Both the position numbers and the translations under genes were made by a program. From a virus (lineage: Duplodnaviria > Heunggongvirae > Uroviricota > Caudoviricetes): 64,000 nt of DNA. Location: IMG/VR virus record IMGVR_UViG_2740892229_000011; one strand, given 5' to 3'. Positions 5,798 through 64,000 of the stretch are shown in pieces (the first letter of the stretch is position 1; each line of letters opens with the position of its first letter). The notes under the pieces are model-generated. The model did no database searches. It was not told the origin of the DNA and saw only the letters and a list, made by a program, of their open reading frames with translations.

Positions 5798-8211
<2,414 letters not shown>

Positions 8212-14675: not shown

Positions 14676-14695
14676 TACTGTTTACTTATACAGTG
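14676..14695. promoter_or_regulatory. LexA (SOS) box-like palindrome upstream of the recombinase gene
   Basis: TACTGTTTACTTATACAGTG matches CTGT-N8-ACAG with an AT-rich centre; 26 bp upstream of the ATG at 14722. Confidence 0.5.
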
Positions 14696-14721: not shown

Positions 14722-15825
14722 ATGAAAAATAGCTTTGACAGAGCACGCGCTGCGGAGAACACCTCAAAAGAGGCGATAGAGTATCTCGAAAGAGCATCTC
14801 AAATGCAGGCCGTTATGATCTCCCAGGTCAGCAATGACATGAGATTCTCGGACGCATTCATGTTATTCACTCGCTTATCTCTGCTGATAACCAGACGTCG
14901 GCCAGAGATCGCTGTTCATTGTATTTTGATACATGTTTTGCCGCACATTGCCGATGTAAAAGTAAGTGACATTAATAGGTTCATGGTGAACCAACTGGTC
15001 AACCCACTAATACTGGATGGCAAAATTGTTATGGGCCGCCGCGTTTTCTCTCTGATGAAGCAGTTCCTTAGCTGGTGCGCCTTCCAGGGGATGATAGACG
15101 TGTCACCGTTAAACGATATGTCACTTAACAAAGTTGCCGGTGGCGCAAAGCCCACACCTCGCGAGCGGAAGCTGACCGACGCAGAGGTATGGGTGTTCTG
15201 GAATATATGGGACTACTTCAATGTGTGTGCTGGTACAAAATGGGCGGCCAGGCTATGTCTTGTATCCGCAAGACGACCTGACGAAGTACTGCGGGCTAAA
15301 AAAAGTGAGTTCAATCTTAAGCGTGGGGTTTGGAATCAAGGCAAGAGGAACAAATCTGCCCGTGAGCATTCTCTGCCTTTAAGCTCATTAATGCGCACTT
15401 GTATTGAAGAGTTGTTCGAATATGGTAAAGACAGCCAGTGGCTCGTGCCTTCGAATAAAAAAATCGGGAAAGACCTTCCTATGTCTAAAGTGGCAATAGC
15501 CCAGGCATTACGTCGTATTCTGGAACGACCAGAACTGATGGAGCTTGAGCCATTTACACCCCGAGATTTGCGCCGTACTGCGCGTAGTTACTTCCCAGCA
15601 TTAGGCATAAGCCAGGAGGTATCACGTAAAATCATGAACCACAGTCTTGAGGGGATAGATCGGGTCTACGACCGGCACGATTATATGGACGAGATGCGAG
15701 ACGCCTTAGAAAGTTTCTCGACGTACATCGCATCAATCGTAGAGCAACCGGATTTAGACGAAATTGACCACAAATTTAAGGGAGATCGTCTATCAACAGA
15801 GCTTATTCGTGTAAATTTTTCATAG
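14722..15825 (+). CDS. tyrosine site-specific recombinase / integrase (P4-like family)
   Basis: C-terminal catalytic region FTPRDLRRTARSYF ... KIMNHS ... RVYDRHDY (R, RxxR, H and Y positions of tyrosine recombinases; the usual H of the HxxR box is R here). Confidence 0.7.
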   Translation: MKNSFDRARAAENTSKEAIEYLERASQMQAVMISQVSNDMRFSDAFMLFTRLSLLITRRRPEIAVHCILIHVLPHIADVKVSDINRFMVNQLVNPLILDGKIVMGRRVFSLMKQFLSWCAFQGMIDVSPLNDMSLNKVAGGAKPTPRERKLTDAEVWVFWNIWDYFNVCAGTKWAARLCLVSARRPDEVLRAKKSEFNLKRGVWNQGKRNKSAREHSLPLSSLMRTCIEELFEYGKDSQWLVPSNKKIGKDLPMSKVAIAQALRRILERPELMELEPFTPRDLRRTARSYFPALGISQEVSRKIMNHSLEGIDRVYDRHDYMDEMRDALESFSTYIASIVEQPDLDEIDHKFKGDRLSTELIRVNFS

Positions 15826-59592: not shown

Positions 59593-60245
59593 TGACCACC
59601 GTTAACAATAAGAAATGCTACCCAAGCGAGAAATATCTTAATGAGCTGATCACCAACATTGAGTTTGCTGCAAGGGCACCAGTTGAAGTCGTGAGAGCGA
59701 TTGCAGCAGAGCTACAGAAGCACCGTAAGGCCTATGCCAATACAGCCGCATCTAAGGATGGTTGGATAAGCTGTAGTGAGCGAATGCCTGTAATTGGCGA
59801 GCTAAATTGGAGAACTAGTTTTCCTTTACTGGTTACGTGTGAGATCGGCGTTATACCTGCTTATTACGGCTTTGTGAGCGTTAATGGTGATAGGCATTAT
59901 GGCTTTATGGAGAGTCTTAAATACGGAGACGATAACGGCAACCATCCTCAAACTAATGAATATGGTCTGATTAGCAATGTCACACACTGGATGCAACTAC
60001 CAGAACGCCGCAGGAGTCGAACAGTGAATAATGCAGAGTTATTTCAGAAAATATCGGCTCTCGCGACTGAATGCCACGCTATAGCATCTGAGCTTGATGT
60101 TGGCGATGAACGAACCGAGATGTTCGAAATATACAGTGTGCTGCGCAATCTCTGTCGGCGTGGCTACGCCACTCAAGTAGGGCGAATGACTAACCCACTA
60201 CTCTCATCCTGTGATGAGGATGACTCGGATGAGGATGACGAATGA
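59592..60245 (+). CDS. hypothetical phage protein (DUF551-like suspected)
   Basis: GWISCSERMP motif reminiscent of the DUF551 phage family; acidic C-terminal tail. Confidence 0.35.
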   Translation: MTTVNNKKCYPSEKYLNELITNIEFAARAPVEVVRAIAAELQKHRKAYANTAASKDGWISCSERMPVIGELNWRTSFPLLVTCEIGVIPAYYGFVSVNGDRHYGFMESLKYGDDNGNHPQTNEYGLISNVTHWMQLPERRRSRTVNNAELFQKISALATECHAIASELDVGDERTEMFEIYSVLRNLCRRGYATQVGRMTNPLLSSCDEDDSDEDDE

Positions 60246-60913
60246 TGCATAAATCAGTAGCCGGTGAGTTTCAGAAGGAAGTCGATAATACCACTGATCT
60301 ATTGGACGATATTTTAAGCATTCTCGCGCTGCTTGAGGCTGGCGATTGGTCAGAACATTGCACTAAAACGGAGTTAGGCGGTCGGCTTGAAAGAGAGATT
60401 ACACGACTTATTGGTGATGCGCAGGAAGCTACAGTCACTAGTTATGAGTTAATCGCTGAAGCCTGGCGTTTGATGGATGGACAAGATCCTAAAACCAGCG
60501 ATTGGCATAGCAAGGCTTCGAAGTATTTAAATTCCGATAGGGTAGAAAAAGTTGATGATGTGAAACCGAAGCCAGTAGATCACGGTTTCCGCGATAACTG
60601 CGAATGCTCTAGTTGCCAGACCACGGCCCGTATTTGTTCCGAATTGACAGATAAGTCCAGCCTAATCTACGAAGTTAATGTAGGCGGTAATACATGGGTC
60701 GAATGCACAAGAGCTGCATACGTAAGAGCAAAAGACAAGGGTGAATTAACCAGAGTTGTTGCCCATCACCCAAATAATGAGCTTAAAGATCACCAGATTA
60801 GAGAACTGGTGAATGAGTTGCGGGATATTGCGGTTCAGTACCACGGAACGCAGCAATTGCGGGAGAAAATTGCCAGAGCAGTGAACAACTCAATTAGATC
60901 AGAAAGTATGTAG
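60242..60913 (+). CDS. hypothetical protein
   Basis: 223-aa ORF; last gene of the coupled string; followed by a hairpin ggccccatttggatggggcc. Confidence 0.45.
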   Translation: MMHKSVAGEFQKEVDNTTDLLDDILSILALLEAGDWSEHCTKTELGGRLEREITRLIGDAQEATVTSYELIAEAWRLMDGQDPKTSDWHSKASKYLNSDRVEKVDDVKPKPVDHGFRDNCECSSCQTTARICSELTDKSSLIYEVNVGGNTWVECTRAAYVRAKDKGELTRVVAHHPNNELKDHQIRELVNELRDIAVQYHGTQQLREKIARAVNNSIRSESM

Positions 60914-61673
60914 TCAATACAATAAAATGGCCCCATTTGGATGGGGCCGGTAACAACTAGCATTATGGGCGCTGGTTGACGTACTCAATGATCGCTTCGA
61001 TGATTGCGAACATAGGCGGCACGATTTTGAAAAGTAAGTTAAGCACTATAGGCCTCACTTAGTTTTATCGCACCTAGCTGCAAATACCTTTGAGCTTGCC
61101 TTTGCAGTTGCAATATCTGTAGTCGCCAGATACTTACGGCACGATTTCGAGTTAAGGTAAGGTTTTAGAGTCACCAAAAACCTGGACTTAAATCTTCTTT
61201 GAGAACAACGATGTTTGGTAAATGGTCATTATTACCTAGCATGACGGCTCAACGTTTCTTGATGAATCCAGTACATTCGGTTAATCTTAGCTCAGTCGCC
61301 AGATACTTATGGCTCAGGAACAGAGGCGCAAACTCTGTTTCCTTTTAAAAAGCCCAGCCTAGTCAACTGGGCTTTTTTAATGTCCGTTTTTAACCAAATG
61401 TACCCACAATACCGCAACATCAGTGTCTTGCGAATTAAGATAGGATTTATAGAGACTATGTGCAAGTGCATAACTTTGTGGATAACTCGTAAAGGAAAAA
61501 GTGGTTTCCGCGGACATTAGTTCAGACAAGGAGTCTGGGAAAGTCAATGGGAAGTAAAAATTTGTTAAAAATAACGTTTGTTGGAATTGTATATATTTAT
61601 GCCTTTCAATAGTTAGCATCTTATTAACATCTTTTTTAAGAGATAGAGTTCAAAAATATATAGCTTCAACATA

Positions 61674-61693
61674 TACTGTATGCATATACAGTA
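61674..61693. promoter_or_regulatory. LexA (SOS) box
   Basis: TACTGTATGCATATACAGTA, a near-perfect match to the consensus TACTGT-N8-ACAGTA; 16 bp upstream of the UmuD'-like ATG. Confidence 0.7.
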
Positions 61694-61709
61694 TTAAGAG
61701 GCGAGTATT

Positions 61710-62099
61710 ATGGGCTTCCCTTCTCCTGCGGCGGATTATGCTGAGAGCCGTATTTCTCTTGATCAGCAGATAATTAGACATCCTTCAGCGACCTACTTCA
61801 TGAGGGCGGCTGATAGTCATCATCGTGAGGGAATATTGCAGGGTGCATTGCTGGTGGTCGATTCCTCACTGACTCCTGTTGATGGATCTCTTCTTGTATG
61901 TGCTCTGGATGGGGAATATCGCGTAAAAAGATACCGGAAGTATCCACGTCAACATCTGGAGGATTTAAGAACTGGTAAGAAGGAAGCATTGCCAAAGGAT
62001 GATGATGGATGCACGGGCAGCAATGCCGTGTTTGGTGTGATCACTCACATTATCAACGACGCAAGAAGTGGCGAGTTTGATGATTGTCCTGTGATGTAG
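61710..62099 (+). CDS. UmuD'-like (HumD-like) S24-family protein encoded directly in the processed form
   Basis: Begins M-GFPSPAADYAE, i.e. at the position equivalent to the UmuD Cys24/Gly25 cleavage site; in-frame stop 15 nt upstream prevents any N-terminal extension; Ser and Lys catalytic positions present; no umuC-like gene follows. Confidence 0.75.
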   Translation: MGFPSPAADYAESRISLDQQIIRHPSATYFMRAADSHHREGILQGALLVVDSSLTPVDGSLLVCALDGEYRVKRYRKYPRQHLEDLRTGKKEALPKDDDGCTGSNAVFGVITHIINDARSGEFDDCPVM

Positions 62100-62136
62100 G
62101 AGAACTGTTTAGGTGGTGCATTGCACCACCTTTTTA

Positions 62137-63237
62137 TCACACTGCGCGGAATGCGATTTCGCCAGGTATTACTTCACCTTGCCAATACATTTGGGCAGCA
62201 ACGCGATCTGCGAGGTCACGATAAATAGCCGTAAATTCGCTATCTGGACGACTAATAACGGTTGGTGTTCCGTTATCCAGATCTTCACGAAGAGAGATAT
62301 GAAGTGGCATTTGGCCTAACAACTGCGTGTTGTATTTCTCGGCCAGTTTCTGTGCGCCACCGGTGCCAAAAATTGGCTCGTGATGACCGCAGTTACTGCA
62401 AATATGCACACTCATGTTTTCGACGATACCTAGTACCGGCACTTCGACTTTTTCGAACATCACAATGCCTTTCTTCGCATCGATCAGCGCGATGTCTTGC
62501 GGCGTAGTTACCACAACCGCACCAGTTACAGGAATGTTCTGCGCCAGCGTCAACTGAATATCACCAGTGCCCGGCGGCATATCGAGAACGAGATAGTCCA
62601 GATCAGGCCATAGAGTTTCCTGCAACATCTGCATCAGCGCCTTGCTGGCCATCGGTCCACGCCACACCATTGCATTGTCGTCGGTGACCAGATAACCAAT
62701 AGAGTTGGTTGCCAGGCCATGAGACATGATAGGTGCCATGTGAGTACCGTCAGGTGAGGTTGGACGTTGGTTTTCCGCGCCCAGCATGGTTGGAATTGAT
62801 GGACCATAGATATCGGCATCCAAAATACCAACTTTCGCACCTTCAGCAGCCAAAGCCAGTGCCAAGTTTACTGCTGTGGACGATTTGCCTACACCGCCCT
62901 TGCCTGAGCTTACGGCGATAATATTCTTAACACCATTAATGCCTGGTTGGTTTTTGACGCGCTTAAGCGTGGCAATGTTGTACGACAGCTTCCAGTCAAT
63001 AGCCTTTGCGCCAGTGATACGGAGCAGATCACCACTACATTGCTCTTTCAGGTCTTCAAAAGGCTTATTCCACACGAAAGGCATGATTAGTTCGACATGC
63101 AGTGTGTCATCCATCAACGCAACATGGTGTAACGCTTTAAGCGTAGTCAGGTTGTGTTTCAGGGTTGGGTGCTGAAAATTAGCCAGCGTACCGGCTACCA
63201 TTGCTCTCAGGGCATCCGGCGATTTGGACTCGCTCAT
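62137..63237 (-). CDS. mrp: Fe-S cluster carrier ATPase Mrp/ApbC
   Basis: Full-length near-identity to recalled E. coli Mrp (P-loop GKGGVGKSST, CSNCGH motif). Confidence 0.95.
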   Translation of the reverse strand: MSESKSPDALRAMVAGTLANFQHPTLKHNLTTLKALHHVALMDDTLHVELIMPFVWNKPFEDLKEQCSGDLLRITGAKAIDWKLSYNIATLKRVKNQPGINGVKNIIAVSSGKGGVGKSSTAVNLALALAAEGAKVGILDADIYGPSIPTMLGAENQRPTSPDGTHMAPIMSHGLATNSIGYLVTDDNAMVWRGPMASKALMQMLQETLWPDLDYLVLDMPPGTGDIQLTLAQNIPVTGAVVVTTPQDIALIDAKKGIVMFEKVEVPVLGIVENMSVHICSNCGHHEPIFGTGGAQKLAEKYNTQLLGQMPLHISLREDLDNGTPTVISRPDSEFTAIYRDLADRVAAQMYWQGEVIPGEIAFRAV

Positions 63238-63394
63238 CCCGTCTCCTTTATTTTAATTTGCGCAATTGTCGCCTTGTAGTGTACTCCAGCTGCGACATTT
63301 AATCATTTATGAGAAATGCTGTTATCACATGGCAGACATAAGGCCATTTTGTTACTATCAAGCCCCTTTTCACTACAAAGAAGTAATGCCTACT

Positions 63395-64000
63395 ATGACC
63401 CAAGTCGCGAAGAAAATTCTGGTGACGTGCGCGCTGCCGTACGCTAACGGCTCAATCCACCTCGGCCATATGCTGGAGCACATCCAGGCTGATGTCTGGG
63501 TTCGTTACCAGCGAATGCGCGGCCACGAGGTTAATTTCATCTGTGCCGACGATGCCCACGGTACGCCGATCATGCTGAAAGCACAGCAACTTGGTATCAC
63601 ACCGGAGCAGATGATTGGCGAAATGAGTCAGGAACACCAGACTGATTTCGCAGGCTTTAACATCAGCTATGACAACTATCACTCGACGCACAGCGAAGAG
63701 AACCGTCAGTTGTCTGAGCTTATCTATACTCGCCTGAAAGAGAACGGTTTTATTAAAAATCGCACTATCTCTCAGTTGTACGACCCGGAAAAAGGCATGT
63801 TCCTGCCGGATCGTTTTGTGAAAGGCACCTGCCCGAAATGTAAAGCGCCAGATCAATACGGCGATAACTGTGAAGTTTGCGGCGCGACCTACAGCCCGAC
63901 TGAACTGATCGAGCCGAAATCGGTGGTTTCTGGTGCTACCCCGGTAATGCGTGATTCTGAACACTTCTTCTTTGATCTGCCCTCTTTCAGCGAAATGTTG
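63395..64000 (+). CDS. metG: Methionyl-tRNA synthetase, 5' portion (continues beyond window)
   Basis: [35 protein letters not shown]..., HIGH-type motif and zinc knuckle CPKC...CEVC; no stop before the window end. Confidence 0.95.

Follow-up and report, generated by a model that had tools for sequence, protein, structure and literature searches.

A phage-plasmid-borne humD gene that encodes a UmuD'-form protein downstream of a putative LexA operator

A gene in the 64,000-nt virus DNA analysed here (Caudoviricetes; IMG/VR record IMGVR_UViG_2740892229_000011; hereinafter the window) is, judged by its sequence, humD, the already catalogued mobile-element version of umuD that encodes the protein in its UmuD' form. 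The gene is under purifying selection, with dN/dS of 0.04 and dS of ~1.0 relative to P1 humD (Nei-Gojobori). A sequence-only reading had described it as a LexA-controlled gene for a pre-processed UmuD' at the edge of an element beside chromosomal mrp. That interpretation is partly supported: its core stands, while its genomic context was wrong. One correction is that the window belongs to a phage-plasmid and contains no prophage beside chromosomal mrp. The features of the locus are listed in Table 1.

Table 1. Features of the humD locus (positions in the window)
Feature	Position	Strand	Remarks
Predicted sigma-70 promoter of humD	61649-61677	+	Consensus scan, 9/12 matches
Putative LexA operator (SOS box) TACTGTATGCATATACAGTA	61674-61693		Consensus match; conserved upstream of relatives
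TAA stop and Shine-Dalgarno sequence	61695-61701	+	TAA overlaps AAGAGG (61696-61701), 8 nt 5' of ATG; direct sequence reading
humD CDS	61710-62099	+	UmuD'-like S24 fold, no N-terminal arm, C-terminal tail SGEFDDCPVM
Stem-loop AGGTGGTGCATTGCACCACCT and T-run	62111-62131		Between humD and convergent apbC; terminator scan
apbC/mrp	62137-63237	-	Convergent with humD
metG (methionyl-tRNA synthetase)	63395 to >64000	+	Runs past the end of the window

The family of the protein is well defined. The humD product matches the NCBIfam HumD equivalog model NF051876 over positions 1-129 of 129, with 219.8 bits (cutoff 120; E=8e-66). It also matches PF00717 (Peptidase_S24; 37.9 bits) and PHROG 811 ('UmuD-like'), and its best match among solved structures is UmuD' (PDB 1UMU; E=6.7e-23). 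Two related families do not include it. Specifically, it scores 87 bits against the UmuD subfamily model NF007621 (autoproteolytic Pol V subunit; cutoff 110) and has neither the arm nor the Cys/Ala-Gly self-cleavage site, so that it is related to that subfamily but is no member of it. Its match to TIGR00498 (LexA) reaches 27 bits (cutoff 111) and is confined to profile positions 91-166; only the C-terminal S24 domain matches and there is no N-terminal winged-helix/HTH domain, which excludes a repressor of the LexA or phage CI type. The labels 'LexA family transcriptional regulator' on some relatives are therefore misnomers.

CYRAN_98 of Escherichia phage Cyrano (phage-plasmid pLF82) has the same protein sequence (100% identity). 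Identity is 91.5-93% to HumD of P1 and of the P1-like phages RCS47, SJ46, and D6, and falls to 68-73% for N15 gp26 and phiKO2 gp23. Among related phage-plasmids, P1, N15, phiKO2, and Cyrano thus carry the gene or a homolog. An identical protein in RefSeq (WP_000506720.1) is already named 'HumD family translesion DNA polymerase' in newer annotations. A database search returned 555 clusters of relatives at E<=1e-10, many of them already named HumD family. They occur mostly in Escherichia, Citrobacter, Klebsiella, Enterobacter, Salmonella, and Kluyvera, on contigs of both plasmid and chromosome size. The gene has the full-length model match, the start at Gly25, the absence of an operonic umuC and, at the level of sequence, the LexA box that characterise the HumD family. 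The earlier assignment as HumD-like is supported by the model match, the identity to P1 HumD, the alignment of UmuD from Gly25, the conserved LexA box, and the lack of umuC on the whole element.

The N-terminus of the protein coincides with that of processed UmuD. The CDS encodes 129 aa and begins MGFPSPAADY. When full-length E. coli UmuD was searched against the window by tblastn, only residues 25-139 aligned, with 42% identity, and no frame upstream of humD encoded the N-terminal arm. In a multiple alignment, M1-G2 of the humD protein lie opposite C24-G25 of UmuD, and Gly25 is the first residue of UmuD'. The ORF thus starts at the residue where UmuD is cleaved, as had been claimed. An in-frame TAA at 61695-61697 lies 15 nt upstream of the ATG with no start codon in between; the stop reported to bar a longer N-terminus is indeed present, and a search for an upstream in-frame start that would restore the full N-terminus of UmuD found none. 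The start is also common to the relatives. Among the 120 closest of the 555 clusters, 106 begin with M-GFPSP, and lengths cluster at 126-130 aa; the 14 exceptions are mostly start-codon overcalls through the operator or substitutions in the GFPSP motif, and one is a partial sequence. The upstream stop, the tblastn result, and the starts of the relatives rule out a longer N-terminus reached by a frameshift or an alternative start.

Many longer HumD entries in the databases owe their length of 148-223 aa to a start codon called too far upstream, so that the annotated protein includes translated tandem SOS boxes; the peptide '...IQYLYC...', for instance, is the translation of ATACAGTA..TACTGT. 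Overcalled or mislabelled relatives include P0023, P0024, P0031, P0046, P0048, P0070, and P0082.

The putative operator TACTGTATGCATATACAGTA agrees with the LexA consensus TACTG(TA)5CAGTA in 18 of its 20 nt. Neither of the 8-nt arms has a mismatch, while the central 4 nt are not palindromic; the box is therefore 'perfect', as it had been called, in its conserved arms and not in its centre. It is the sole site within 3 mismatches of the LexA 20-mer in the 64-kb window, and no such site arose in 100 dinucleotide-preserving shuffles. The looser core CTGT-N8-ACAG occurs 3 times in the window versus 0.9 expected. The box is separated from the ATG by 16 nt, compared with ~20 nt at E. coli umuDC, and a LexA box lies 14-44 nt upstream of the M-GFP start in P1, N15, and phiKO2. 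The predicted promoter comprises a −35 hexamer TTCAAA (61649-61654), a 17-nt spacer, and a −10 hexamer TATACT (61672-61677) that extends into the left arm of the LexA box. Downstream of the gene, the stem-loop in Table 1 is likely the humD terminator, and annotated terminators follow the N15 and phiKO2 homologs at the equivalent position. An Rfam scan of 60200-63500 detected no known RNA in the ~800-bp intergenic region upstream of humD; the single sub-threshold match (E=0.4) lies on a terminator hairpin.

DNA similarity between P1 and the window spans exactly the interval from the first base of the LexA box to the stop codon, with 83% nucleotide identity, and the flanks are unrelated. These limits indicate that the box and humD move as one cassette. 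The homology begins downstream of the predicted humD promoter, so the promoter is probably specific to this element.

A second LexA-box-like site, TACTGTTTACTTATACAGTG, is located at 14676-14695, with 4 mismatches and an intact CTGT-N8-ACAG core. It lies 27 nt upstream of a tyrosine recombinase/integrase ORF (14722-15825, + strand), which is convergent with a putative repressor gene. In macrophages, expression of the Cyrano homolog of this ORF, CYRAN_44, climbs alongside that of humD, from log2 5.6 to 10.3. The integrase ORF may be a second LexA-controlled gene of the element.

In the intergenic region 5' of humD, a stretch of 124 nt (61461-61584) is 72% identical to the upfN/upfO region of P1, which is annotated as carrying DnaA boxes. 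A perfect consensus DnaA box, TGTGGATAA, lies at 61477-61485 (TTATCCACA on the − strand). Between this stretch and humD, the window lacks the hot and lxr genes that P1 has.

The locus resides on a phage-plasmid. The window is 99.98-100% identical to the circular plasmid unnamed3 of E. coli 2013C-4991 (NZ_CP027358.1; 110,001 bp) apart from one extra segment. The plasmid encodes a RepB-family initiator, ParB proteins, terminase, major capsid, tape measure, and tail fibre proteins. It also encodes dnaE, a DnaB-like helicase, primase, ligase, a 3'-5' exonuclease, nrdAB, thymidylate synthase, dfrA51, and four tRNAs. It thus has the features of an SSU5-like phage-plasmid, namely a circular genome of ~100-115 kb with siphovirus structural genes and replication and partition genes, and Cyrano (pLF82) has been called SSU5-like (PMC9928086). 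A megablast search with 61300-62400 found the humD-apbC junction in 103 of 5426 complete E. coli genomes (~2%), always on circular plasmids of ~100-120 kb.

Two segments of the window deserve mention in this context. Window positions ~1-61000 (24,700-84,000 of NZ_CP027358.1) contain, along with the DNA-metabolism genes, RNase HI, a LAGLIDADG homing endonuclease, and the trimethoprim-resistance gene dfrA51. The extra segment, at 5798-7751, is a 1.95-kb insertion relative to NZ_CP027358.1 that codes for an IstA-like protein of 340 aa and an IstB-like protein of 260 aa and interrupts a gene for a Sel1/TPR-repeat protein; identified by eye, it looks like an IS21-family element.

The apbC and metG genes downstream of humD belong to the plasmid. 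The block is 84.2% identical in DNA to the chromosomal copies of K-12, with 94.8% identity for the ApbC protein, and the homology is confined to the block. This divergence and the plasmid location identify the two genes as plasmid-borne paralogs. The pair is kept in phages Cyrano, CMS-2020a, and PhiR41_1 and on the plasmids of >100 complete E. coli genomes; SSU5 itself is absent among the apbC-metG matches. During lysogeny, the LF82 copy of apbC is expressed 9-fold above the prophage background (PMC9928086). Past metG, the element continues with genes for terminase, capsid, and tail proteins, which places humD in its interior. Thus humD does not, as had been claimed, sit at the extremity of an element beside chromosomal mrp: it is internal to a circular phage-plasmid of ~110 kb, and the mrp beside it is plasmid-borne. 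A prophage integrated beside chromosomal mrp-metG is ruled out by the circular-plasmid locus, the phage genes beyond metG, and the diverged paralogs.

The element carries no partner for humD. No UmuC homolog was found in the window or in the rest of the 110-kb plasmid (best tblastn match, E=0.7), and no Y-family polymerase is present among all 126 annotated features of NZ_CP027358.1. The stated lack of a umuC partner therefore holds for the whole element. The umuC gene is carried by 5423 of 5426 complete E. coli genomes.

Transcript data are available for the Cyrano gene CYRAN_98, whose protein is identical to humD here and whose LexA box differs at 2 central nucleotides. The values, in log2(fpkm+5) for two replicates, are from S1 Table of PMC9928086, a re-analysis of GSE154648. 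CYRAN_98 is at 7.44/6.94 in LB stationary phase (BLB), 9.56/9.89 in condition B1, 9.14/9.03 in condition B6, 11.37/11.30 in THP1 macrophages at 1 h, and 12.12/12.31 at 6 h, a rise of ~30-fold relative to LB (PMC9928086 S1 Table). The neighbouring apbC-like and metG genes of Cyrano are flat or falling in macrophages (same table). The macrophage is a genotoxic, SOS-inducing environment, and Cyrano is induced by ciprofloxacin (PMC9928086). The rise of CYRAN_98 fits an independently transcribed, stress-inducible gene. LexA control does not follow from it, since transcripts of several further Cyrano genes go up in macrophages too.

Comparison with P1 suggests what the protein does. P1 HumD, like the protein here, has 129 aa, the M-GFPSP start, the C-terminal tail, an upstream LexA box, and no adjacent umuC, and both genes are borne by phage-plasmids. 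In the P1 GenBank record, a LexA site is annotated for both lxr and humD, and the note on P1 HumD (AAQ14181) states that it 'functionally complements E. coli UmuD''; PMC7092418 likewise describes it as a functional UmuD' substitute. By analogy, given 91.5% identity to P1 HumD, the protein here would replace UmuD' in mutagenesis and in binding to UmuC and the RecA filament. The two loci differ in their surroundings. The neighbours of humD are divergent lxr and phd-doc in P1, whereas here the gene lies between the ~800-bp intergenic region and convergent plasmid-borne apbC; the promoter is not common to the two, as the DNA homology starts at the LexA box. The host elements also differ, namely an SSU5-like siphovirus-type phage-plasmid here and a P1-like myovirus there. 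P1 HumD is reportedly poorly expressed and is said to complement well only from a high-copy plasmid (McLenigan et al. 1999), so the natural contribution of the protein to mutagenesis may be small.

The genes N15 gp26 and phiKO2 gp23, which are carried by linear phage-plasmids, have the same truncated architecture, tail, and upstream LexA box, and the box of phiKO2 gp23 is identical to TACTGTATGCATATACAGTA in all 20 nt. Unlike humD here, both encode Thr in place of the nucleophile Ser and adjoin the sopAB partition genes; phiKO2 also has a divergent dinI-like gene. E. coli UmuD and UmuD' (the Pol V accessory subunit; PDB 1UMU, 1I4V, and 8GMT) have the S24 fold in common with the humD protein, and in umuDC, too, a LexA box closely precedes the start codon. 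Compared with UmuD, the humD protein lacks the 24-residue arm and the Cys24-Gly25 cleavage site, the gene has no downstream umuC, and the protein has an extra C-terminal tail of 10 residues. MucA, ImpA, and RumA, encoded on plasmids or ICEs, are likewise S24 subunits of Y-family polymerases on mobile elements (~38-44% identical to the humD protein), but they are full-length, self-cleaving, and encoded with their own polymerase gene. Their alignments end at query residue 119-120 and thus these proteins lack the HumD tail.

We consider it likely that humD is repressed by LexA and that, upon SOS induction, HumD dimers replace UmuD' on host UmuC to give a Pol V-like activity that requires no cleavage. 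We infer LexA binding at 61674-61693, pairing with UmuC, and a benefit to the phage-plasmid. Specifically, in an unstressed cell, host LexA on the operator overlapping the −10 element would keep humD transcription low. DNA damage would activate RecA and trigger self-cleavage of LexA, and humD would be transcribed as a single-gene unit. HumD would dimerise and join host UmuC to form a Pol V-like translesion polymerase, HumD2-UmuC. This route would skip the slow RecA-dependent cleavage of UmuD to UmuD' that normally delays mutagenic bypass. The benefit could be that the ~110-kb replicon tolerates damage, or that the host does so during SOS, a state in which the element is induced as well.

One feature counts against the UmuD'-substitute model, as it has no role in it: the conserved C-terminal tail of HumD. 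The tail (residues 120-129), (S/N)(G/A)EFDDCPV(M/I/L), is acidic-hydrophobic, near-invariant in HumD proteins, and absent from UmuD, MucA-type proteins, and LexA. It loosely resembles the C-terminal tip of SSB, DFDDDIPF. An AlphaFold2 model of the protein, built on an insufficiently diverse alignment of 96 sequences that are all at least 67% identical, is of low confidence, with a mean pLDDT of 54.5 and values below 50 for residues 1-24 and the tail region 117-129. The tail could be a docking peptide for a partner that UmuD' does not have, such as SSB-interacting replisome proteins or the element's own Pol III alpha, although we regard this as doubtful; if true, HumD would be more than a pre-cut UmuD'. 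The tail also bears on a broader alternative, in which HumD acts mainly as a modulator of the replisome or the RecA filament during SOS rather than in mutagenesis with UmuC. HumD might bind the alpha, epsilon, or beta subunit of Pol III, perhaps also the DnaE-type polymerase of the phage-plasmid, or it might bind RecA-ssDNA filaments and thereby tune recombination or prophage induction. The family-specific tail suggests an interaction that UmuD' lacks. The element itself carries genes for a Pol III alpha (dnaE), a DnaB-like helicase, a primase, a ligase, and a 3'-5' exonuclease, and genotoxic stress induces it (PMC9928086). In P1, humD is close to hot, which encodes a homolog of Pol III theta, and umuD products reportedly act on the Pol III alpha-beta complex (Silva et al. 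2012). However, the P1 ortholog is documented to complement UmuD', and the surfaces in common with UmuD' are conserved, with 42-44% identity over the whole core, so that such a main role is unlikely. It and the role in mutagenesis with UmuC are not mutually exclusive.

The catalytic residues speak to another alternative, that HumD is an active S24 protease in trans which accelerates SOS outputs, e.g., by cleaving host UmuD or a LexA-like repressor. Intermolecular cleavage is reportedly known for UmuD-like proteins (McDonald et al. 1998). The Ser-Lys dyad is kept in the humD protein, with Ser in ADSH and Lys in RVKRY, and 104 of 106 family members retain the general-base Lys (Lys97 position). 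However, only 60 of 106 relatives have Ser at the nucleophile position (Ser60 of UmuD, residue 36 of the humD protein), whereas 44 have Thr and 2 have Ala, and the G-D-S-M motif is degraded to A-D-S-H, which looks like relaxed selection on catalysis; we consider a protease role highly improbable. The absence of the N-terminal 24 residues and of a umuC partner might instead suggest that humD is a functionless, decaying remnant of umuDC that lost its 5' end and umuC. A dN/dS of 0.04 over synonymous divergence of ~1 argues against decay, as do the 555 related clusters, which agree in start and in length (126-130 aa), the predicted RBS, operator, and terminator of its own, and the transcription and inducibility of the gene for the identical protein in LF82. 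The conservation data effectively refute decay, which is scarcely credible as an explanation of the gene. The preferred reading is thus that HumD serves, probably, as a UmuD' substitute for host UmuC.

Little of this is new with respect to the family: HumD has long been characterised, reportedly since McLenigan et al. 1999, has an NCBI-curated model, and the identical protein already bears the name HumD in RefSeq. We found no mention of humD, umuD, metG, or apbC in two phage-plasmid surveys. The LexA box and humD form a portable cassette common to the three classic lineages of enterobacterial phage-plasmids, namely P1, N15/phiKO2, and an E. coli branch of SSU5-like elements. Given that clinical E. 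coli commonly harbour SSU5-like elements and that SOS induces these elements, a cleavage-independent, SOS-induced Pol V cofactor encoded on them could modestly affect stress-induced mutagenesis.
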